A DNA stretch of 64,000 bases, taken from the UHGV virus genome UHGV-0018629. One strand, given 5' to 3'. Under the pieces are notes generated by a model that was given only the letters and a program-made list of their open reading frames with translations, had not been told where the DNA came from and made no database searches. A program made the translations under genes and the position numbers. The DNA is from a virus. Below, in pieces: positions 510-60,241 of this stretch; within the stretch, counting starts at the first letter, position 1, and each line of letters opens with the position of its first letter.

Positions 510-539
510 ATTATAACACAACACGAGGGACTTGTAAAC
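510..539 (-). promoter_or_regulatory. T4-type early promoter (-35 GTTTAC, 18 bp, -10 TATAAT)
   Basis: Reverse complement of gtaaac (534-539) and attata (510-515). Confidence 0.7.
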
Positions 540-2596
540 TACATCTTGAACTTTTTAGACATTCCGTTGATGTTAACCAAAGAAGCCAATATTTGAGAAA
601 CTTCGTTTTCCTCTTCTTTTGATTCTTCTACAAGGAATTGATTAAACCCAGCCATTGGACGAACTTCACCAGTTTCCATTAGATGATCGCCATCATATAC
701 TGATTCTTCTAATTGTTCAGAAGGAGGAACGATTGTGCCTTCGATTAGATACTTATTATAAGCAGTTTCTTTCGTCATGTACGTACTTACTTTATTAATC
801 TTCAGTAAAATTCCACGTGGCAAAATAACTTCAGCTTCGGATGGAAATCCTGATAAATGACCTGGAACGATAACTTTAACTCGTTCAGCTCCTTTAATTA
901 CCATACCTACATTAGTTTCAGCGTCTTCATTCGCATATGTAGAATGACTACCCATATGCATTAAATCTTCGGCATCAACTGAACCTTCTCCTTCGCCAGA
1001 AAATACTGCTCCGGAATCATCTAGAGCCATATAATTTTTACCATACTCACCAAAGATATTTGGTTTAAGTGATGTCGATACGAAGTTCTTGAAATAGAAC
1101 ATTTTATTTTCAATGTTATGACGCAAAGTTTTAAAGGTAACTTCTTGCCCGCGATAAAGAGTAGTTCCTGGAGGAAGAACTGAACCTTTAGTAAATGCAG
1201 AATCCAACGCTTCGATGTTCTTAATAGCACGTTCCATATATTCTTCACGGGTGGAATCTGGTTTACCTAAAAGGAACGAGTTCATTTCAACATATGAATC
1301 TGCACAATACTCTTCAATTACATCAGACTCAGCCTGAGTTAATCCTTTTGGAGTTACTTCAGTGCTTGCATATTCATACGCCTGAGCAGCGGATTCATCA
1401 ATCAATTTATAAATTCCATTCATTACAAATTGAATAATAGCTGTCTTTTCATCTGGTGTAGCTTTAGAACCTTTAACTAAATCATTGATAATTTTCTTAA
1501 TAACATCAAAGCTATTAGAAATATTAATATCAGCAAGATCGCTTAAAATTTTATCAGCTTTATAATTAAAAAATTCTTTATTCTTTGAATATTCCTGAGA
1601 ACCTTGATATGATATATCGCTCTGCAACTTGATAGATGGATCACGTAAACGTGCATGAGCCAATGCAATATGATTTCTGAAGCTTTCTAATTCATAATCG
1701 CTAGATTTAAAACGAGAAGCACTTCTCATACCACCGATAGCTCCTTTGCTGAAGTTTGAACCAACTTGAATAACACCAGAGTTCATCGGTCCTTCTGCTT
1801 TATATACCGGAACTTTAGATTCAAACTCTTGATATTTCTTGGCAGCGAAGCTATCACCCTGAAGTGAAGCATCAACAGTAGAATATTGAGCTTGTGCTGC
1901 TAATCGACGACTAATTTTAGTTTTTTGAATAACAACTTGATCCGTGCGCTTATCATTTTCTAAAGCAATAGAAGCAGCAACAGCAACAGCTTTAGGAACA
2001 GCATTTCCTGTTTTAACGTCTACATAAACATCACCGACCTTTGATTCAACTTTTGTGAATAGCTCTGTTGAAATAGGAGGTACACCTGGAATGTCTTCTA
2101 AATTGGCATTTTTACGGTAAACCATAATATATGCATACTTTTTATCATAATCCCAGATTTCCTTTAAAAGAACGTATCGACCTGCTCCTTTAGTACGTAC
2201 TAAACGGTCAGCAATAACTTGCATTTGACGAGCTGCGCCATTTGTTTTACTCTTTAGTACGCGGAATAAGCATGCATCAATTTTATACTGTTTCATTGTT
2301 TGAAGAGCAGTATCAAAAACCGCATTAATGACACCAATTGGATTTCCACCTAAGTTTTTAAGTTTAACTAATGATAGTTTCTCATTAACACCTATCATTA
2401 CGATATGCATCATTTTATCGCCTGGCTTAACGTTTTTATTTGTATCACCACCAGAAGTGTATGTACAAAATCTAAATCCAGGGAGAACACTTTCTTCACC
2501 GGCTTGAATAGCAAAAATTTGAGGTATTTTATGCTTAGGATTTAAGTTAACAACCGGCGCCGAAGCGCCGTCAAATAATTCTGTAATAAGTTCCAT
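539..2596 (-). CDS. alt: Alt-like ADP-ribosyltransferase (685 aa), packaged internal-protein type, paralogue 1
   Basis: N-terminus MELITELFD (capsid-targeting/prohead-protease-type leader); C-terminal R-S-E ART motifs (YRGQ, FVSTSL, EAEVILPRG); size close to T4 Alt. Confidence 0.8.
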   Translation of the reverse strand: MELITELFDGASAPVVNLNPKHKIPQIFAIQAGEESVLPGFRFCTYTSGGDTNKNVKPGDKMMHIVMIGVNEKLSLVKLKNLGGNPIGVINAVFDTALQTMKQYKIDACLFRVLKSKTNGAARQMQVIADRLVRTKGAGRYVLLKEIWDYDKKYAYIMVYRKNANLEDIPGVPPISTELFTKVESKVGDVYVDVKTGNAVPKAVAVAASIALENDKRTDQVVIQKTKISRRLAAQAQYSTVDASLQGDSFAAKKYQEFESKVPVYKAEGPMNSGVIQVGSNFSKGAIGGMRSASRFKSSDYELESFRNHIALAHARLRDPSIKLQSDISYQGSQEYSKNKEFFNYKADKILSDLADINISNSFDVIKKIINDLVKGSKATPDEKTAIIQFVMNGIYKLIDESAAQAYEYASTEVTPKGLTQAESDVIEEYCADSYVEMNSFLLGKPDSTREEYMERAIKNIEALDSAFTKGSVLPPGTTLYRGQEVTFKTLRHNIENKMFYFKNFVSTSLKPNIFGEYGKNYMALDDSGAVFSGEGEGSVDAEDLMHMGSHSTYANEDAETNVGMVIKGAERVKVIVPGHLSGFPSEAEVILPRGILLKINKVSTYMTKETAYNKYLIEGTIVPPSEQLEESVYDGDHLMETGEVRPMAGFNQFLVEESKEEENEVSQILASLVNINGMSKKFKM

Positions 2597-2599
2597 GAT

Positions 2600-4696
2600 T
2601 TATCCTTGAACGAACTTGTAAGGCATGTTTGTAATATCTATGCAAGACGCAATAATTCCAAGAGATGATTCTACTTTTTGTTTAACATTTGATGAAACAA
2701 ATGATGCAAAGTCAACTCTGTCTTCTATTTCAATATCACCTGTCATTGCAACTACTTCACCGGTTTCCATTAGATGGTCTCCGTCATAGATTACCGATTC
2801 GGTGAGTTCTTCTATGGTCATAACTTCAGCTTGAATGAGTTTTGTATTATTAGATGTTGTTCCGTCATTATTAGAAGCATCAGTTATTTTATTAACTTTA
2901 ACCATCAATCCGCGCGGTAGAATAACTTCAGCTTCTGTTGCTATTCCGAGACTTCCTGGATATACAACATTAACTTTATGAGCTCCATCAATTGCCCATC
3001 CTATTTGAACTTTAACGTATTCAGGATTTTCTTTATACGCTCTTATTTCATTTGGATTAATAGTTATTCCTTCTTCATTTTTATCAACTGTCAATTCATT
3101 ACGAGCTTCTGGTTCTAAAAGACCAATACCAGCATGTGTAATTCCAAAACGTCCAAAAATGATAGGAGTTAAAGAAGTAGATACAAAATTTCTGAAATAG
3201 AACACTTTATTTTTAACTAGTGCTTCGTATATAGGAGCAGTCATACTTTGAGCACGATAAACTGTGATGCCTTCCGGTATACGGTCACCATTTTCAAAAG
3301 CTGAATCTAAGTTATTTATAGCAGATTCAATTTCTTTTTCACTCATTACATCATATCGTTCTGGATTGTAACGACCTAAAAGAAGATTATTGATGTCAGT
3401 ATATCCTGAACCGCAATATTCTCTAATGCCACGCTTTTGTAATGGAGTATATTTAGAACCATCGCGGGCAATAGTAATATCAATCATTGAACCAGCACCA
3501 ATTCCAGAAAAACTGTAAATCATTCGTTTGAGGAATTTAGTTTTTGCTGCGTTCCAGGAATTTTTAGTTATTTCTTCCCAGACTTCATCTGGTTGTCCTT
3601 TACGGGTTTTATTATGACTAGCAAGCCATTTATCTTTATAATCTTCAAAGAATTTATTAACAGCTGCTGCGTATTTCTCTAAACATTTTATTGAAGTAGT
3701 TGGTTCATTTTTAATCGCGTTAAAAATTACATCTTTAATTTTTTCTGAAACTTCACCGACTTGACTCATTGGAAAGAATTTATAGTCATAGTGAAGTTCA
3801 TCTGCAGTTCCTTCAGCAATAATTTTTGCTGCCTTAGTTTTAGAAGCCAATGAATTAATTCCAAGTTTCATTTCTTCTGCTTCGGGAATTAAAGGAGCGG
3901 TAGCAGGTTTATTGAAATTAGCTGCGGTAGATTCATACTTCTGGAATAATTCACTTTCAAATCTAGAAGATTCTAATGATTGACTTTGTGCAATTGCTCT
4001 ACGGGAAATTTTAACTTTAACGATTACAGCTTGGTCAGAACGTTTATCGTTTTCTTGCGCAATAGATGCTGCAATTGCCTCATTTTTAGTTACTTGAGCT
4101 CCGGTATCTTTATTGATATAAACATCACCGACCTTCGATTCAACTTTAGTAAAGAGCTCGGTACTAATTTCCGGAACTCCTGGAATGTCTTCTAGTGATA
4201 CATTTTTGCGATGTATAAGAATATATGCATACTTTTTATCATAATCCCAGAGTTCCTTAAGAAGGACATATCTGCCACCTGAACGACTACGGATAAGTCT
4301 ATCAGCAATAACTTGAATTTGTCGAGCTTGACCAGCGGTTTTAGACTTAAGAATACGAAGCATGCAAGCATCAATTTTATACTGACGCATTGTTTGCATT
4401 GCAACAGTAAAAACTGAATTAATATAATTAATTGGGCTTGGACCGAGACCTTTCAATTTAGCAATTGAACCTTTAGCGGTTAATGTAAAAGGAACAATGT
4501 GCATCATTTTATCGCCCATTTTTAAATCACGGTTAGTATCACCTCCAGATGTATAGGTGCATAGACGAAAGCCTGGTTGTTCAATTGCATCATCAACGTG
4601 AACTGAAAAAATTTGTGGTATTTTCTTCTTTGGATTTAAGTTTGTAATCGGAAGAGTAGTATCTTCGTCAAATAATTCTGTAATAAGTTCCATCAT
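2600..4696 (-). CDS. alt: Alt-like ADP-ribosyltransferase (698 aa), paralogue 2, in tandem with the first
   Basis: First ~240 aa nearly collinear with ORF 539-2596, divergent centre, conserved ART motifs (YRAQ, FVSTSL, EAEVILPRG); 3-nt intergenic gap. Confidence 0.8.
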   Translation of the reverse strand: MMELITELFDEDTTLPITNLNPKKKIPQIFSVHVDDAIEQPGFRLCTYTSGGDTNRDLKMGDKMMHIVPFTLTAKGSIAKLKGLGPSPINYINSVFTVAMQTMRQYKIDACMLRILKSKTAGQARQIQVIADRLIRSRSGGRYVLLKELWDYDKKYAYILIHRKNVSLEDIPGVPEISTELFTKVESKVGDVYINKDTGAQVTKNEAIAASIAQENDKRSDQAVIVKVKISRRAIAQSQSLESSRFESELFQKYESTAANFNKPATAPLIPEAEEMKLGINSLASKTKAAKIIAEGTADELHYDYKFFPMSQVGEVSEKIKDVIFNAIKNEPTTSIKCLEKYAAAVNKFFEDYKDKWLASHNKTRKGQPDEVWEEITKNSWNAAKTKFLKRMIYSFSGIGAGSMIDITIARDGSKYTPLQKRGIREYCGSGYTDINNLLLGRYNPERYDVMSEKEIESAINNLDSAFENGDRIPEGITVYRAQSMTAPIYEALVKNKVFYFRNFVSTSLTPIIFGRFGITHAGIGLLEPEARNELTVDKNEEGITINPNEIRAYKENPEYVKVQIGWAIDGAHKVNVVYPGSLGIATEAEVILPRGLMVKVNKITDASNNDGTTSNNTKLIQAEVMTIEELTESVIYDGDHLMETGEVVAMTGDIEIEDRVDFASFVSSNVKQKVESSLGIIASCIDITNMPYKFVQG

Positions 4697-4728: not shown

Positions 4729-4748
4729 TAAAGGCCCGAAGGCCTTTA
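4729..4748 (-). terminator. Hairpin ttaaaggcc-cgaa-ggcctttaa separating the early unit from the alt late promoter
   Basis: Inverted repeat with CGAA loop. Confidence 0.45.
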
Positions 4749-4934
4749 ATAATCTATTGGTAAGAGAGTACGGTATATTTCAAACTTTGGACCTTTTTCA
4801 TAGGCATCAAATGTTTCTGTAAATTTATTATAAGCGTATGCATCTACAAATTCAAGCATGATTTGTGATACAGAAGTAGAAACATCTCCACCTTCTTTTT
4901 GAGCAACGACAATTGTTTCTAAGTAAGCTTTCAT
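4746..4934 (-). CDS. Hypothetical small protein (62 aa)
   Basis: ORF track; start overlaps ligase stop (coupled). Confidence 0.45.
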   Translation of the reverse strand: MKAYLETIVVAQKEGGDVSTSVSQIMLEFVDAYAYNKFTETFDAYEKGPKFEIYRTLLPIDY

Positions 4935-6394
4935 AGACCAGTTACCTCATGAAAATCACCAAATACATCCTCGAATGTATTAGCTTTAGTTTTATCTTCA
5001 CGCAAACGAATCGCAATCGGAAGAAATAATTTAACGTAATCAGTGCGACCATCAGATTTTAACCAACCGTTGCATTCGCACTCTAGAATTTTTCCAATAT
5101 AATAATTTTGGTTTTCCATAATGCGAGTACGGTCAAGTTCATGCGATTTTACACCGGCTTTATCTTTTAAGCCTGAACCAGCATTTACTTTAATTTTTCC
5201 ACATTCTGATTCAAGAATAAATCCACCCGCTTTAGTAGGGTCTTTACGGTGAGGATAAATTCCTACAATTTTTAAATCAACATCAATTACTTCTTTAAAT
5301 TTATAGAGATTTTTTGAACGAGCATTTTCCCATAACCCATCAACGTTTTTGAGAATAATACCTTCAAGACCTTGGTCAATATATTTTTTATAAATTACCT
5401 TAGCTTCGTCTAAATTATTTACTACCTGGTTTTCAATTAAAATTACTTTGTCGTATCCTGATGTCATTTGTTCTAGTTTAGAAAAACGTACATCATACTT
5501 CAAACGAAATGCTGGAAGACCGTATATTTCTACCAACGGAACATAATCCCAGACCTGAAACTTCATACATTGAGCTTCTTTTTCTGAAATAGTCCCCTTT
5601 AAAGATTTATTAGCAATTCCATTAGATGCAGTACGTGATTCAGCTACTTCGGCAAACTCTTTAGCTTTACTAATTTCAGGATAAGCATCAAAAAGAAAAT
5701 CTAGGCCTTCTGGCTCCTTTTCAACTTGCTCATGGTATACCAATTCGCCATCAATTAACACACCTTCTGGATGAATCTGGCGGGCTTCAGCGGTCATTTT
5801 GATTAACTCTTCTTTAAGAAAATCTAATCCTAGATATTCATTACCAGCTCGTGATAAAAGACGAACATCGTCTAATTCATCACCTCTGATTTCGGCAAAA
5901 CACCGAGCTCCATCTGCTTTTAACTGTGCAAAGGCTGGAAATTTGATATTCTTATTAATGCCTTTTTCGTCATAAGAACTTGCAAGCATTTGAGGCTGTT
6001 CAGGAATTAAACCTGGCCAGACTTTGTTTGCAATAGATACAGAAGCACCACATTCAAGGTCTCGCATCATCACTCGACGCAAAACTTCAACATCATCTTT
6101 TTTACCGTCAGTAATATAACCAATTAATTCTTCAATTGCCGCATTTCCGGTTAATTTCCGAGTAGCTAACGTGAATTCAATAAAATCAAGCATATCGGTA
6201 ATAGTCAACATTCCAAAACTCTGGGTGGCAATGCCGGGTTTAGGCCATTTTTTGATATAATACTGCAACCCGCGAGAATAAGTTAGACGATATACTCGTT
6301 TAAGCAATTCATTATCTTTATTCTTTTCAAGAATTGCCTGCTTCTGTTTAGTTGATCCAATAGATGCTATTTCATTCAGAATTTTAAGAATCAT
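4931..6394 (-). CDS. 30: ATP-dependent DNA ligase (gp30)
   Basis: 487 aa, same length as T4 ligase as I recall it; KADG adenylation motif (QLKADGARCF); N-terminus MILKILNEIAS. Confidence 0.93.
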   Translation of the reverse strand: MILKILNEIASIGSTKQKQAILEKNKDNELLKRVYRLTYSRGLQYYIKKWPKPGIATQSFGMLTITDMLDFIEFTLATRKLTGNAAIEELIGYITDGKKDDVEVLRRVMMRDLECGASVSIANKVWPGLIPEQPQMLASSYDEKGINKNIKFPAFAQLKADGARCFAEIRGDELDDVRLLSRAGNEYLGLDFLKEELIKMTAEARQIHPEGVLIDGELVYHEQVEKEPEGLDFLFDAYPEISKAKEFAEVAESRTASNGIANKSLKGTISEKEAQCMKFQVWDYVPLVEIYGLPAFRLKYDVRFSKLEQMTSGYDKVILIENQVVNNLDEAKVIYKKYIDQGLEGIILKNVDGLWENARSKNLYKFKEVIDVDLKIVGIYPHRKDPTKAGGFILESECGKIKVNAGSGLKDKAGVKSHELDRTRIMENQNYYIGKILECECNGWLKSDGRTDYVKLFLPIAIRLREDKTKANTFEDVFGDFHEVTGL

Positions 6395-6660
6395 TATTCG
6401 TCCTTCAGAGTTTGGTTTACAGCTCTATTATAAATCAATTCATCATTAAGCTCAGTCAAAGACCTATGATATGTAGTTCTAACTTTATTTCCTTGCATCC
6501 AGTGCTTGATATAAATGAAACCTTGCTCTACACATTTTTTAAAAATTCGTTCGTCTTTTTGAGCTCGGAATTCTGGATTGCATCTAAAAAATTGATTTAC
6601 GTGACCGTAATCACGTGTAGTATTACCTTCATTTTCATAAATAGTGTGAACGACAAACAT
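6394..6660 (-). CDS. Hypothetical protein (30.1 position)
   Basis: ORF track, 88 aa, coupled to neighbours. Confidence 0.5.
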   Translation of the reverse strand: MFVVHTIYENEGNTTRDYGHVNQFFRCNPEFRAQKDERIFKKCVEQGFIYIKHWMQGNKVRTTYHRSLTELNDELIYNRAVNQTLKDE

Positions 6661-7505
6661 TAGAATGCTCCTTGGAAAATATTATCACCACAAGTAGGTC
6701 TATTATACAAATACTCTATGCCACCAGGTTTAATATAGTTCCATGTCTGAAATGGATGTGTCTGATATAGATGATATGGATTATAATGATTATAAGGATT
6801 AAATCCAGGAGTTCTCCAGGTAGTGTTCCAAGGAAAAGAATCGTTTTTAATCATCTTCTCGATTGCATCTTTTATAGCTTTTTCACTATCAAAACTTTCT
6901 TTATTTTCCTTTGGTGAAAAAAGCTTATTTTCTATATCATTCCATGTATAAACTCGCTGAGCAGTTTTTGGAATATTGTCACGCTCTCCTCGAGCCATCC
7001 AATAAACAGGAACATTTAATATTTCACTCGCATGATCACAATGATGAGCGAGATCGTCAATATAACAAATTACATTATATTTCTCTTTTGCCTTTTTGAA
7101 CAACTCTTCTTTTGAAGAATCATGTCCACACATCATTACTTCTGAGAAGGCACCAGGAAAAAGAGCATTCAAATTAAATTGACGATTCAACAGAGCATCA
7201 ATAGAATCACCCAGTGCTGTAACAGCCACAAAATTATAATCTTCTTTTAATTTGTTAATTACACACAGAGCATCTTTGTACGGAGACAAGTAACGAATAA
7301 AATCTGAGCGATTGTATTTTTCAATTAACTTGACACCAAGCTCTTCATCACAATTAAAGAGTTTACCTGGAGAAATAAATTTCTCATCTTGGATCATTTT
7401 TAAAATATGTTCTAATGGAAGATTATATTTCTGAGCAAAATAAGGAAGGCCCGATTGCCAGCTTAAACATACTCCATCAATATCAGTTAAAATAGTAGGC
7501 TTCAT
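6660..7505 (-). CDS. HAD-superfamily hydrolase-like protein (30.2 position)
   Basis: N-terminal DIDGV motif typical of HAD phosphatases/nucleotidases; 281 aa. Confidence 0.6.
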   Translation of the reverse strand: MKPTILTDIDGVCLSWQSGLPYFAQKYNLPLEHILKMIQDEKFISPGKLFNCDEELGVKLIEKYNRSDFIRYLSPYKDALCVINKLKEDYNFVAVTALGDSIDALLNRQFNLNALFPGAFSEVMMCGHDSSKEELFKKAKEKYNVICYIDDLAHHCDHASEILNVPVYWMARGERDNIPKTAQRVYTWNDIENKLFSPKENKESFDSEKAIKDAIEKMIKNDSFPWNTTWRTPGFNPYNHYNPYHLYQTHPFQTWNYIKPGGIEYLYNRPTCGDNIFQGAF

Positions 7506-7966
7506 AGAGAGTCTCTTAATAGGTTTAACACATCAATAAATTCAGCTTCGGTTAGTATTGTATCATCTTTTGTTAGACCACTAGCCATGCTATGCTTCAA
7601 AACTTTTCCTTTCGAGGCTTGTAATGCATCGCGAAAGCCCCTGTTTTGGAACGCTGCTTCAAAATATGCATTTGTGTATAATTCTTTCCACGCTGGAGAG
7701 TATCTTGAAAACGGAGTTCCAAGCCAGAAGAGGGTCCCACGGTCCTGAGCTCTAGCATAAGACCTTCCAGCTTGTTGGGCGGCAAGCCCGGATAACCCAA
7801 ATATACGACGTTGCTGTTCAACATTTTTCACCTTGCAACCTTGGAGGAATCCTTCGAGACCTCCAAATTGAATGCCATCCATAATGAAAGGCCATTGGGC
7901 GAAATTACTTAATGCGCATGATGGCCATCTAAAATTGCTTCTAATCTCTAACTCAGACATTTTCAA
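7502..7966 (-). CDS. NADAR/YbiA-like (DUF1768) domain protein (30.3 position)
   Basis: Motif LSNFAQWPF...DG..F...EGFLQGCK resembles the SNFAxWP signature of E. coli YbiA/NADAR; 154 aa. Confidence 0.5.
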   Translation of the reverse strand: MKMSELEIRSNFRWPSCALSNFAQWPFIMDGIQFGGLEGFLQGCKVKNVEQQRRIFGLSGLAAQQAGRSYARAQDRGTLFWLGTPFSRYSPAWKELYTNAYFEAAFQNRGFRDALQASKGKVLKHSMASGLTKDDTILTEAEFIDVLNLLRDSL

Positions 7967-8159
7967 TGCTTATAATTTCAACATCAGACCAATGACCATA
8001 GCAAGGAAGACGAAATTCAACTGGCCAATCACTACCTTTTTCTAGTATAATAGACTTAACTTGTGGTTCTTCATGTTCATCAGTATATGGATTTTTATCT
8101 GTTACTTTATATGTGACCTTAATGTACTGAATTCCAAAAATCTTATTAATTATGTTCAT
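7953..8159 (-). CDS. Hypothetical protein (68 aa)
   Basis: ORF track. Confidence 0.4.
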   Translation of the reverse strand: MNIINKIFGIQYIKVTYKVTDKNPYTDEHEEPQVKSIILEKGSDWPVEFRLPCYGHWSDVEIISIENV

Positions 8160-8353
8160 ACTAATTCCTTTAATCCGTAAATAGGAGATAATTCATCACC
8201 CATACGAAGGTCTTCATTTCCATCTACCCAGGAAACAATATAAGCCTCCTTTATTTGAATACCACTCCATTTAAATGGAGGTAGAACCTTAGAAATTAAT
8301 CCAGGTATACCGACTCCCTTTAATTCAACAGTTTGACCTAAAAAGAATTTCAT
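8156..8353 (-). CDS. Hypothetical protein (65 aa)
   Basis: ORF track. Confidence 0.4.
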   Translation of the reverse strand: MKFFLGQTVELKGVGIPGLISKVLPPFKWSGIQIKEAYIVSWVDGNEDLRMGDELSPIYGLKELV

Positions 8354-59018: not shown

Positions 59019-59621
59019 TTATAGATTAAATCCTTCAAAATCAAGAGTATAGACAGTGTATGTTGAATACTTTTTATACTCGTATCTATCCGCAATTCTA
59101 AATACACTTCCAGCTGGTATCATTACTTCTTGTTCATCTGAAACTAATTCCATATTACGATAGCGATGGCTATCCGGAAATTTAAAACTCGGGCTATATT
59201 CTTTACAACGTAAAGCTTTTATAGCATACTCCTGGAAATTAAACACCATAGGAGCTTTGAATTCAAAAATAATTTGTGTATTGTATTCTAATCCAGAAGC
59301 AAAATGTAGAGCTATATTTTTATCATATGAAGCTGATACGACTTTATCAAATGTAATAATATCAATTCCTTGATTTAACACTTGTTTAGTCTCGACTGGA
59401 ACACCTCTCCAAAGAGGTTTATCGTTTGGTTCCAAACGAGATTTGATTATTTCATTTAACCAAGTATGGTCATCTGGCTTATTAGTAATACAATGAATTA
59501 AAAGTTCAATTTCAGATAAATTAAACCCTTCAGAAAGTAATTCTTCACGAATAGAAGCACGCACCGATGCATCCATTGATTTGATTTTAAAATCTTTTAA
59601 TTGCATTGCTGAGTATTTCAT
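59019..59621 (-). CDS. modA: ADP-ribosyltransferase ModA
   Basis: 200 aa; tandem with 207-aa paralogue; ART-like R...S...E spacing. Confidence 0.8.
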   Translation of the reverse strand: MKYSAMQLKDFKIKSMDASVRASIREELLSEGFNLSEIELLIHCITNKPDDHTWLNEIIKSRLEPNDKPLWRGVPVETKQVLNQGIDIITFDKVVSASYDKNIALHFASGLEYNTQIIFEFKAPMVFNFQEYAIKALRCKEYSPSFKFPDSHRYRNMELVSDEQEVMIPAGSVFRIADRYEYKKYSTYTVYTLDFEGFNL

Positions 59622-60241
59622 TCAACTACCTCAATATCATACACTTTAAATGTTCCAAACGAATCGTGTAATTTTTCTTTTGAAATAGAAGTTATTTTAT
59701 ACTTTCCAATTGGAATCATCCATTCTTGTTCACGTACAATCATCATTAAGTTATCAGTACGTTCTGAATCTAATCCATCTGTATCTTCATATGTATACTT
59801 AAACTCAGTATTAGGAGAAGAAAGTATAATATCGCTAATATGGTCAGAATAATTAAAAGCTTTATCAGTTTTTAAACGAAATATTATTTCAGTGGAATAT
59901 TCAACATAAGAAAAACCACATGCTGTGTGCAAACTAGTAGTAAATGAATCTACCCTGTTCGTTGAAAACACTTCTCCAACTTGTAAATCTTTAATGAGTT
60001 CTTTTGTTGATTTTGATATACCACGATATAACTGATAAGGTGATTTAGTTAAATGCTTTTTAACGATTTTATTCAACTGCCGATGAAGAGCTTCATTCTT
60101 TTTGGCTTCCATACATTGCCAAAGAATTGACTGTTCAAAGTCAGTAAATTTTTCACAGACCTTTTTATACATATCATATTGAAAATCGACGCTTTCAGCT
60201 TTTATAGATAACTGTTCAACATCTGCAGGATTAATAATCAT
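59618..60241 (-). CDS. modB: ADP-ribosyltransferase ModB
   Basis: 207 aa; paralogue of modA, coupled. Confidence 0.8.
   Translation of the reverse strand: MIINPADVEQLSIKAESVDFQYDMYKKVCEKFTDFEQSILWQCMEAKKNEALHRQLNKIVKKHLTKSPYQLYRGISKSTKELIKDLQVGEVFSTNRVDSFTTSLHTACGFSYVEYSTEIIFRLKTDKAFNYSDHISDIILSSPNTEFKYTYEDTDGLDSERTDNLMMIVREQEWMIPIGKYKITSISKEKLHDSFGTFKVYDIEVVE

Follow-up and report, generated by a model that had tools for sequence, protein, structure and literature searches.

Gene organization of the locus

The window, which is the whole stretch of 64,000 nucleotides that was analyzed, represents a Tequatrovirus (T4/T6-like) genome. It contains a cluster of genes on the minus strand, among them genes 30, 30.1, 30.2, 30.3 (adfN), and 30.4 (Table 1). 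The ORF at positions 7502-7966 contains the sequence ...LSNFAQWPFIMDGIQFGGLEGFLQGCK..., while the ORF at positions 6660-7505 begins with MKPTILTDIDGVCLSW, and all of the NADAR and HAD sequence signatures claimed in a preliminary description of this DNA were found on the minus strand. The genomic context given there was also recovered: the genome is rich in ADP-ribosyltransferase (ART) genes, with two alt paralogs, modA, and modB. Gene 30.1 is located between the DNA ligase gene and 30.2.

Table 1. Positions of the genes, overlaps, and catalytic codons considered in this study
Feature	Position	Strand	Product or remark
alt paralog	539-2596		ADP-ribosyltransferase
Second alt paralog	2600-4696		ADP-ribosyltransferase
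Gene 30	4931..6394	-	ATP-dependent DNA ligase; most conserved neighbor of 30.2
Gene 30.1 (DUF3045)	6394..6660	-	PF11243, E = 1e-64
Gene 30.2	6660..7505	-	281 aa; predicted HAD-superfamily phosphatase, NT5C-like branch
ATGA overlap	7502..7505	-	30.3 stop and 30.2 start; read from the sequence
Gene 30.3 (adfN)	7502..7960	-	152 aa; putative DNA ADP-ribosylglycohydrolase by T4 orthology
adfN codon H123	7594-7592	-	Catalytic residue
adfN codon K43	7834-7832	-	Catalytic residue
adfN codon E36	7855-7853	-	Catalytic residue
30.3'	7597..7824	-	75 aa; out-of-frame ORF within adfN, internal translation product in the T4 annotation
ATGTCTGA overlap	7953..7960	-	30.4 stop (7955-7953) and adfN start (7960-7958); read from the sequence
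Gene 30.4	7953..8159	-	68 aa; phrog_2042; directly upstream of adfN
modA	59019-59621		ADP-ribosyltransferase
modB	59618-60241		ADP-ribosyltransferase

The true start of adfN is almost certainly the ATG at position 7960, which gives a protein of 152 amino acids that matches the one in T4. The TTG at position 7966 is merely the first start codon that was picked by the ORF lister. Inspection of the sequence 5' of the adfN ATG (GATGTTGAAATTATAAGCATTGAAA-ATG) revealed no clear Shine-Dalgarno motif. Genes 30.2 and 30.3 are early genes of the phage, and the coupling that had been claimed for them is visible as an ATGA overlap, in which the ATG of 30.2 occupies positions 7505-7503 and the TGA of 30.3 positions 7504-7502. 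Shared stop and start bases such as ATGA are a layout typical of translational coupling. Genes 30.1 and 30.2 also overlap, by a single base between the start of the former and the stop of the latter. Because four successive junctions are tightly packed and have overlapping stop and start codons (alt.1/30, 30.1/30.2, 30.2/30.3, and 30.3/30.4), the ATGA overlap constitutes little evidence by itself.

The AdfN protein

The 30.3 protein is identical to T4 gp30.3 at 147 of 152 positions (97%), and the five substitutions are conservative (V26I, V82T, I104F, K107R, and I125M), with none at E36, K43, or H123. It matches the family PF08010 (Phage_30_3) over profile positions 1-138 of 138 (E = 8e-69; 230.2 bits, with a cut-off of 36). 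Since this match and that of the 30.2 protein to phrog_420 (E = 6e-93) are so strong, the motifs in the two proteins are not due to chance. The AF2 model of the 30.3 protein (pLDDT 81, pTM 0.80) supported the NADAR fold that had been proposed: the top three Foldseek matches in the PDB were 2b3w, 8bau, and 8bat (probabilities 1.00, 0.99, and 0.82), which represent YbiA, a Phytophthora NADAR, and a Geobacter NADAR, and there was no other credible PDB match. Consistently, YbiA was also the best PDB match of the gp30.3-family profile (E = 0.06). The families PF08719 and PF13419, which were expected for the two proteins, were not matched by the window proteins at E ≤ 1; PF08010 was found for 30.3 and nothing for 30.2. 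Two relatives gave matches to PF08719 below the threshold, namely 30.3 of KVP40 (E = 0.0022) and a NADAR-HAD fusion protein (E = 0.0011; locus L024). When the 30.2 and 30.3 proteins were searched as single sequences, neither the PDB sequences nor NCBIfam nor the HAD and NADAR families of Pfam yielded a usable match, and the HAD and NADAR assignments required profiles and a fold search.

The catalytic residues E36 and K43 are invariant in the alignment of the gp30.3 family and are kept in 121 and 122, respectively, of 122 homologs in fusion proteins, while H123, located in the motif LKHS, is invariant in the alignment and present in all 122 fusions. The gp30.3 proteins form the phage branch of the NADAR superfamily, and the residue in the last strand is a His in this clade, a Glu in YbiA, and an Asp in the BC4488 and DarG1 types (PMC11125620). 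The C-terminal helix is intact in the window protein, which has all 152 residues and ends with ...EFIDVLNLLRDSL; the helix covers residues 140-153 in the model. These results confirm that 30.3 in the window is an ordinary, intact adfN allele with a NADAR fold.

T4 gp30.3 was renamed AdfN, for anti-DarT factor NADAR, in 2025 (Johannesman et al., Nat Commun 2025, PMC11825919). Deletion of adfN renders T4 sensitive to DarTG1, the substitutions E36A and K43A weaken the rescue, purified T4 AdfN strips ADP-ribose from DNA, and the RB69 allele, in which the C-terminal helix is lost, is inactive (PMC11825919). The T4 protein hydrolyzes guanine-ADPr in vitro, but not thymidine-ADPr (PMC11125620). The action of a NADAR protein against DarTG-type toxins, as suggested in the preliminary description, has been shown experimentally for this 97% identical protein (PMC11825919), and the reversal of guanine ADP-ribosylation by a phage NADAR to overcome DarTG is already known from work published in 2024-2025. 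[quoted passage not shown]

By transfer from the T4 protein, AdfN in the window is predicted to be a guanine-ADP-ribose DNA glycohydrolase. Host DarT1 ADP-ribosylates the phage DNA and thereby blocks its replication. The T4 enzyme, and by orthology probably also the window protein, cleaves the N-glycosidic bond that attaches ADP-ribose to guanine in DNA with the help of E36 and K43, plus H123 at the site where other NADAR clades carry Glu or Asp. T4 AdfN takes off the adduct and therefore enables the phage to replicate in DarTG1 hosts. It acts as an “orphan antitoxin”, for which the toxin gene is not adjacent and DarT1 is not bound. No DarT toxin gene is located beside adfN in the window, where 30.4 lies on one side of it and 30.2 on the other.

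The window protein shares its length, E36/K43/H123, and its position between 30.4 and 30.2 with T4 AdfN. The NADAR clade that is closest to gp30.3 in the published phylogeny is the DarG1 type, the antitoxin of DarT1-NADAR operons represented by the Geobacter lovleyi (8bat) and E. coli C7 proteins, which have the fold in common with AdfN and likewise free guanine in DNA of ADP-ribose. However, gp30.3 differs from this type in that it has no adjacent DarT gene, no N-terminal extension, and a His rather than an Asp in the last strand, and the T4 protein, unlike the DarG1-type antitoxin, gives uninfected cells no protection against DarT1. The NADAR/DUF1768 family was founded on E. coli YbiA (2b3w), which aligns to 30.3 with a TM-score of 0.63 (probability 1.00) at roughly 18% identity, and both proteins carry the motif SNFxxWP...DG...E.FxQ..K. 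Like the phage enzyme, YbiA has G-ADPr activity in vitro and gives no protection in vivo, but it differs by the Glu in the last strand and by its housekeeping role in riboflavin metabolism.

The gp30.2 protein

The gp30.2 protein in the window is identical to its T4 homolog at 272 of 281 positions. gp30.2 occurs in about 1,450 phage genomes and is part of a family of about 1,400 sequence clusters. In the AF2 model, residues 1-200 (positions 6906-7505) have a pLDDT above 90, and the C-terminus consists of a helix (residues 204-221) followed by a disordered tail rich in aromatic residues, Asn, and Pro (residues 229-281; positions 6663-6821). The model shows a Rossmannoid core and a cap domain, and a C-terminal peptide, IEYL..PT, is conserved. 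A search with Foldseek yielded 100 matches at E ≤ 0.001, and among the 50 listed, all had the HAD fold or were HAD-based designs, which agrees with the HAD-like hydrolase with a DIDGV motif that had been described. The best match was to cdN (2jao, E = 1.7e-8), which was also the best PDB match of the gp30.2-family profile. The highest target-normalized TM-scores (0.60-0.70) and lowest rmsd values (4.2-5.2 Å) were obtained for structures of the NT5C family and the designed protein 3u13.

The HAD motifs of gp30.2 are D8-I-D10-G-V12 (motif I, with the Asp nucleophile and the acid/base Asp), T96 (motif II), K132 (motif III), and D150-D151 (motif IV), and the alignment placed these residues in the active site. 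D8, D10, and K132 are invariant and T96, D150, and D151 nearly so, both in the alignment of the gp30.2 family and in a more diverse one. The window protein matched no Pfam or NCBIfam family at E ≤ 1. However, 13 of 40 distant homologs matched PF06941 (best E = 3e-9), whereas just five to six of the 40 matched PF13419 or PF00702. A weak match was obtained to phrog_415 (E = 0.0025), in the part of a phage polynucleotide kinase that is a HAD phosphatase. The T5 deoxynucleotidase Dmp was considered as a relative and rejected (no Pfam match; hhalign probability 1.4%). The cdN and mdN proteins (NT5C, PF06941; 2jao, 2i7d, and 1q92) share the DxDGV motif I and the α-helical cap type with gp30.2, from which they differ in sequence (14-16% identity); in gp30.2, the cap insertion is also longer, and a tail of 80 residues is present that is composed of a helix and a disordered segment. 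A literature search on gp30.2 identified nothing relevant and no biochemical data. We infer that gp30.2 is a HAD phosphomonoesterase of the 5'(3')-deoxyribonucleotidase (NT5C)-like branch, a prediction for which the fold and the motifs were computed.

Association of NADAR and HAD domains across genomes

The neighborhoods were counted in 77 viral loci seeded with gp30.2. A DNA ligase gene is located within about 2 kb of gp30.2 in 72 of the 77 loci, mostly adjacent to it or with one small gene in between; several loci lack 30.1 at this site, and their ligase and gp30.2 ORFs overlap. This proximity persists at ligase identities of 36-39% and also in loci with an inverted order (L091, L095-L101). 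The gene for gp30.3 is located upstream of gp30.2 on the same strand in 30 loci and is missing within ±6 kb in the other 47. The order of the two genes is reversed in one locus (L021), and they are about 59 kb apart in Klebsiella phage KP185.

Other members of the gp30.3 clade are associated with a different HAD protein. The 30.3 gene of KVP40 overlaps a canonical NT5C gene, KVP40.0071 (PF06941, 43 bits), and the pair adjoins gene 47; overlaps of this type were found in 48 phage records. The KVP40-like phages also contain a separate gp30.2-like gene elsewhere in the genome. Furthermore, PF08010 and PF06941 are joined on one polypeptide in at least 120 protein clusters, 16 of which have an N-terminal domain of KptA, the RNA 2'-phosphotransferase. 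The fusions retain the HAD motifs, and the fused HAD is a canonical NT5C domain of about 150-170 amino acids. They are surrounded by RNA ligase/kinase/ARH islands, on contigs of up to 495 kb, some of which are labeled by NCBI as Bacteroidaceae or Prevotellaceae MAGs, and two of which are viral in IMG/VR. The survey of HAD associations covered the His-type NADAR clade, and no description of a coupling between gp30.3-type NADARs and HADs was found in the literature searched.

The KVP40 pair and the fusions resemble the genes in the window in that they belong to the same NADAR clade, have the NADAR before the HAD, and have kept both catalytic sets. However, their HAD is only distantly related to gp30.2, and the neighbors are gene 47 or the RNA ligase/kinase/ARH islands rather than DNA ligase. 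The fused and KVP40 HADs matched gp30.2 profiles weakly in HMMER (12-21 bits), and hhalign gave a probability of 43% for the gp30.2-family profile against a single fused HAD sequence. To recover the homology, a more diverse profile and an alignment of the fused HADs were needed, which gave a probability of 96.5% (E = 7e-10) over the full domain. Because the fused HAD is canonical and its match to gp30.2 weak, and because KVP40 has a separate gp30.2-like gene, gp30.2 may be a paralog with a job different from that of the fused NT5C HAD. A similar logic has been described for ARG (ADP-ribosylglycohydrolase), an ADP-ribose-removing hydrolase that is coupled to a phosphatase, sometimes “a HAD superfamily 5' nucleotidase”, for which further processing of the released ADP-ribose was proposed; this description concerns host operons that contain ARG (Iyer et al. 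2022, PMC9503650).

Transposon data and alternative explanations

In the published HIDEN-SEQ transposon data for T4 under DarTG1, only insertions in 30.3 (log2FC -7.25) and 30.4 (-1.79) were significant, while insertions in 30.2 (71 sites) were unchanged (-0.12, p = 0.61). The other comparisons read for 30.2 gave values of 0.00 under DarTG2, -0.10 for LB versus M9, and +0.34 in sheet S3, the first of the resampling sheets, and its insertions were neutral in each of these. Without DarTG1, neither 30.2 nor 30.3 insertions carry a fitness cost, and on K-12 the insertions in 30.2 are neutral, whereas the DNA ligase is essential. The putative HAD step of 30.2 is dispensable for escape from DarTG1 in laboratory conditions, and the suggestion that the pair acts jointly against the toxin is contradicted for this system.

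These data also bear on whether gp30.2 is the T4 factor postulated for AdfN (PMC11825919), which would account for the ability of AdfN-T4 to rescue RB69 yet not uninfected cells, T5, or Bas25. The independence of Bas32 and Bas60 from the factor, the fusion or adjacency of the His-type clade to NT5C-type HADs, and the absence of a detectable relationship between T5 Dmp and gp30.2 fit with this explanation. It was attractive after the fusions had been found and was dropped on the HIDEN-SEQ table, in which 30.2 does not respond to DarTG1; AdfN alone is moreover active in vitro, and we consider this role of gp30.2 very unlikely. A better alternative, which we nevertheless regard as rather improbable, is that gp30.2 works with the DNA ligase and not with the NADAR, for example in the healing of 3'-phosphate ends or the clearance of nucleotide by-products, so that its adjacency to adfN in the T-even phages is an inherited order without functional meaning. 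The ligase is found near gp30.2 far more often than gp30.3 is (72 versus 30 of the 77 loci), and there is the weak phrog_415 match to a polynucleotide kinase phosphatase. However, the nearest structures are deoxyribonucleotidases that act on small molecules, not end-healing phosphatases, and the fusions and the KVP40 pair associate HAD with NADAR without a DNA ligase. The neutrality of 30.2 insertions also differs from the essentiality of the ligase, and since synteny is broadly conserved in Straboviridae, the proximity to the ligase could also reflect inheritance.

Two further explanations assign the NADAR itself another role. The 30.2/30.3 pair could serve the phage's own Alt, ModA, and ModB in ADP-ribose recycling or the reversal of off-target modifications, given that there are four ART genes, that 30.3/30.2 is located about 2 kb from both alt genes, and that T4-like NADAR genes are expressed early together with ARTs (PMC9503650). 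However, these ARTs are annotated as modifying RNA polymerase and other host proteins, while the T4 enzyme is specific for guanine-DNA-ADPr, and is conditionally essential only under DarTG1, in the absence of which insertions in 30.3, like those in 30.2, carry no fitness cost. The link to Alt/ModA/ModB drawn in the preliminary description is therefore not upheld, and we regard it as highly improbable. It is less probable still that 30.3 is a YbiA-like housekeeping N-glycosidase that acts on riboflavin-pathway intermediates, and that the sugar phosphate set free in this reaction is the substrate of the HAD phosphatase. YbiA is the top fold and profile match of 30.3, NCBIfam gave a weak match to a riboflavin-intermediate N-glycosidase (E = 0.15), and a gp30.2 homolog is titled “FMN phosphatase YigB” in one JGI record. 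However, the NCBIfam match reached 12 bits against a curated cut-off of 73.7, the gp30.3 clade has His in place of the YbiA Glu, the published phylogeny places gp30.3 nearest to the DarG1-type NADARs and away from YbiA, and the experimental phenotype is specific to DarTG1.

A proposed shared pathway for AdfN and gp30.2

Because they are fused or overlapping in unrelated genomes, the His-type NADAR and the NT5C HAD most likely share a pathway. Such a pathway would act on nucleic-acid or nucleotide products that are (ADP-)ribosylated or phosphorylated, and the HAD could, for example, remove a phosphate from a product of de-ADP-ribosylation or end repair, or from a side-product of these reactions. 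We consider it very probable that adfN encodes an anti-DarT1 NADAR glycohydrolase and 30.2 an NT5C-like HAD phosphatase, and that the two act in one shared pathway, although the functional link between AdfN and gp30.2 in particular is suggestive but unproven. A bolder and rather doubtful proposal is that the His-type NADAR and the NT5C-like HAD represent an old two-enzyme module. In KVP40-like phages and in T-even phages, the module would consist of two genes that overlap, and in the RNA-repair/ADP-ribose islands of Bacteroidota-associated contigs of one polypeptide, sometimes with KptA. In the T-even phages, gp30.2 would then act beside or after AdfN on an intermediate, either phosphorylated ADP-ribose or a phosphorylated nucleic acid, and would matter against ADP-ribosylating or RNA-damaging defenses other than the plasmid-borne DarTG1.

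The analysis provides gp30.2 with a confident fold, an intact predicted active site, and two associations, with DNA ligase and with NADAR. While 30.2 is unlikely to be the T4 factor that potentiates AdfN, 30.4 is a second DarTG1-conditional gene and is worth attention in this respect. The NADAR-NT5C(-KptA) fusions suggest that the clade teams up with a phosphatase in nucleic-acid repair, and a partnership of this kind could extend the known role of the AdfN-like enzymes beyond DarT1.

Genomic context

The window is the genome of a Tequatrovirus. Over bases 6300-8200, it shares approximately 96% identity with T6, Salmonella phage SG1 and many T4-like phages, with matches in 664 phage records, and the minus-strand gene order from the alt paralogues to 30.4 agrees with that of T4. 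The preliminary description placed the NADAR-HAD gene pair in a genome with four ADP-ribosyltransferases (ARTs), which proved correct (two alt paralogues, modA and modB), and all motifs that it quoted were found in the sequence. The stop codon of 30.3 and the start codon of 30.2 share the ATGA at 7502-7505. The ATG used in T4 for 30.3 corresponds to 7960, and the TTG start listed at 7966 lies two codons upstream. The tandem full-length Alt paralogues show 42% and 70% identity to T4 Alt; for comparison, T4 has a single alt gene and the short remnants alt.-1, alt.-2 and alt.-3.

Features of the window around genes 30.2 and 30.3 and related ART genes
Feature	Coordinates	Strand
Two alt paralogues	539-2596, 2600-4696	minus
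alt.1	4746-4934	minus
Gene 30, DNA ligase	4931-6394	minus
30.1, DUF3045 protein	6394-6660	minus
30.2	6660-7505	minus
gp30.2 tail, residues 229-281	6663-6821	minus
30.3 (adfN)	7502-7960	minus
75-aa out-of-frame ORF within adfN	7597-7824	minus
30.4	7953-8159	minus
modA and modB	59019-60241	

Gene 30.3 encodes the NADAR protein AdfN

Gene 30.3 of the window is adfN. Its product matches PF08010 (Phage_30_3, E=8e-69) and is identical to T4 gp30.3 at 147 of 152 residues. A profile of 10 homologs identified E. coli YbiA as the best match among PDB sequences, at a sub-threshold E of 0.06, with an alignment that spans the SNFA.WP...DG...E.FLQ..K motif, and more distant homologs reached the general NADAR model PF08719, again below threshold (E 0.001-0.002). 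The AlphaFold2 model (pLDDT 81, pTM 0.80) gave three credible fold matches in the PDB, all of them NADAR/YbiA: YbiA (2b3w; probability 1.00, TM 0.63), a Phytophthora NADAR (8bau; probability 0.99) and a Geobacter NADAR (8bat; probability 0.82), while every other PDB fold had a probability of at most 0.03. The family match and the folds thus bear out the NADAR identity first proposed for this gene.

Resistance of T-even phages to DarTG1 was mapped to gene 30.3, hence renamed adfN; T4 without adfN is sensitive to DarTG1, the substitutions E36A and K43A weaken rescue, the RB69 allele, which is 15 residues shorter, is defective, and purified AdfN strips ADP-ribose from DarT1-modified DNA (Johannesman et al., Nat Commun 2025, PMC11825919). 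Guanine-ADPr, but not thymidine-ADPr, was hydrolysed in vitro, and “gp30.3 proteins” were defined as a NADAR clade with a histidine in the last strand (Toxins 2024, PMC11125620). The methods of the latter study give residues 1-208 for the “E. coli T4 phage NADAR (gp30.3)” construct, and T4 gp30.3 has 152 aa; another phage or annotation may be the source of this construct. The suggestion that the NADAR protein counters a DarT-type toxin was right, as the data on T4 AdfN (PMC11825919) and a transposon screen demonstrate, and this core finding is already known. With E36 (7855-7853), K43 (7834-7832), H123 (7594-7592) and the complete C-terminal helix all retained, the AdfN of the window is expected to be functional. 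The out-of-frame ORF within adfN has the same position as 30.3' in T4, annotated as “internal translation in a different reading frame”.

Gene 30.2 encodes a putative NT5C-like HAD phosphatase

The neighboring HAD-like hydrolase is predicted from motifs and modeled structure to be an NT5C-like HAD phosphatase. It is identical to T4 gp30.2 at 272 of 281 residues, matches no family in Pfam or NCBIfam, including the anticipated PF13419, and falls in phrog_420, a family without annotated function; a literature search on gp30.2 found no paper. Four HAD motifs are conserved in an alignment of 34 homologs (D8-x-D10-G-V, T96, K132 and D150-D151), and D8, D10 and K132 are invariant also in a far more diverse set. 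The AlphaFold2 model has very high confidence over residues 1-200 (block means of 80-98, in most cases >90), followed by a helix (204-221) and a disordered tail (229-281). Foldseek returned 100 matches at E<=0.001, and all 50 of those listed were HAD-fold proteins or designs based on them. The best was mouse cytosolic 5'(3')-deoxyribonucleotidase (2jao, E=1.7e-8), which was also the best PDB sequence match of the homolog profile, and the top target-normalised TM values (0.60-0.70) and lowest rmsd belonged to NT5C-family structures and the designed protein 3u13. At E<=0.001, an exhaustive profile search yielded 1,397 cluster representatives, the majority of 190-220 aa; among 40 sampled, 13 matched PF06941 (NT5C), six PF00702 and five PF13419.

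The tail has pLDDT <50 and a high content of Asn, Pro, Tyr, Trp and Phe. Close to its end, a short G-(I/V)EYL-x-x-(R/Q)PT motif is present in at least 11 of the 34 homologs, down to approximately 45% identity, even though the linkers are highly variable. This motif may act as a peptide through which a partner protein docks.

Association between NADAR and NT5C-type HAD proteins

A gp30.3 homolog is located upstream and on the same strand, overlapping or at most approximately 1.3 kb away, in 30 of 77 viral-contig loci seeded with gp30.2, and the order is reversed in one divergent locus (L021). In two IMG/VR contigs, an N-terminal NADAR (PF08010) and a C-terminal NT5C domain (PF06941) are joined in one protein. 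A search with this fusion gave 1,831 matches; both domains were present in all of the best 120 clusters, 16 of which additionally contain an N-terminal KptA/Tpt1 domain (PF01885). The NADAR Lys and His are kept in all 122 fusion sequences examined and the Glu in 121 (the remaining one has a gap there), and the HAD motifs DMD(N/G)V, ILST and IDDR in at least 95%. The fusions neighbor genes for RNA ligase, an HD+AAA_33 protein, a methyltransferase, an ADP-ribosylglycohydrolase, a WYL-domain protein (PF13280) and further NADARs; RNA-repair and ADP-ribose-processing contexts of this kind have been discussed (PMC9503650). Fused genes, with or without KptA, lie in islands (L024, 1533-5501, and L105-L107) on contigs of up to 495 kb, where the RNA ligase is PF09414 and the glycohydrolase PF03747, and which also encode a 456-aa protein with a CX5R phosphatase motif, a CTP_transf_like+NADAR protein and another stand-alone NADAR.

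In KVP40, 30.3 overlaps a downstream canonical NT5C gene by 23 nt, beside gene 47, an arrangement seen in 48 phage records. Only 82 phage records contain canonical NT5C, and Escherichia T-evens are not among them; in T-even phages, gp30.2 thus takes the slot that NT5C has in KVP40. Homology between the gp30.2 family and the fused HAD extends across the entire domain (hhalign probability 96.5%, E=7e-10). However, HMMER scores of the fused HAD against gp30.2 profiles were only 12-21 bits and KVP40-like phages have a separate gp30.2-like gene in addition to NT5C, so that the HADs represent two paralogous families.

The link between gp30.2 and DNA ligase is far more consistent than that with gp30.3 (72 versus 30 of 77 loci, L028-L104). 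The ligase lies within approximately 2 kb, rearranged loci included, mostly directly adjacent or with one small gene between, and the proximity persists where it is 36-39% identical and on the opposite side; 30.1 (DUF3045) was detectable between the two in 24 loci only. In Klebsiella phage KP185, the 30.3 and 30.2 homologs are approximately 59 kb apart. Both genes are near-universal in Straboviridae records (1,511 and 1,453, respectively), and their co-occurrence at the genome level is therefore uninformative.

A T4 transposon screen bears directly on a joint function (HIDEN-SEQ, bioRxiv 10.1101/2025.11.20.689424). Only 30.3 and 30.4 were significant between control and DarTG1. Insertions in 30.3 were lost (log2FC -7.25), whereas those in 30.2 (71 sites) were unchanged (-0.12, p=0.61), which contradicts a joint requirement for the NADAR and HAD proteins against DarTG1. 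Under DarTG2 (0.00) and in the comparison of M9 with LB (-0.10), 30.2 was neutral as well, and it is non-essential on K-12. Escape from DarTG1 in the laboratory thus does not need gp30.2. AdfN-T4 has been argued to require an unknown T-even factor (PMC11825919); the unchanged 30.2 insertions speak against gp30.2 in this role. Insertions in 30.4 were depleted under DarTG1 (log2FC -1.79, adjusted p=0.014) and not under DarTG2 (-0.03), an effect absent from the main text of the preprint. Since the stop codon of 30.4 overlaps the start of adfN (ATGTCTGA) and adfN lacks a clear Shine-Dalgarno sequence upstream, polarity on adfN is the simplest reading. The restriction of 30.4 to 721 T-even-type records (Escherichia, Shigella, Yersinia) also fits the T-even factor that AdfN has been argued to need.

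Taken as a whole, what the preliminary description observed is confirmed, and its reading is right for the NADAR, DarT idea included, and for the neighboring HAD hydrolase. Its link of the pair to the phage's own ARTs is unsupported, and a joint requirement against DarTG1 is contradicted. It is rather unlikely that AdfN and gp30.2 share a pathway in T-even phages. The recurrent association of NADAR with NT5C-type HAD proteins, together with the role of gp30.2, is the remaining lead, of moderate strength.
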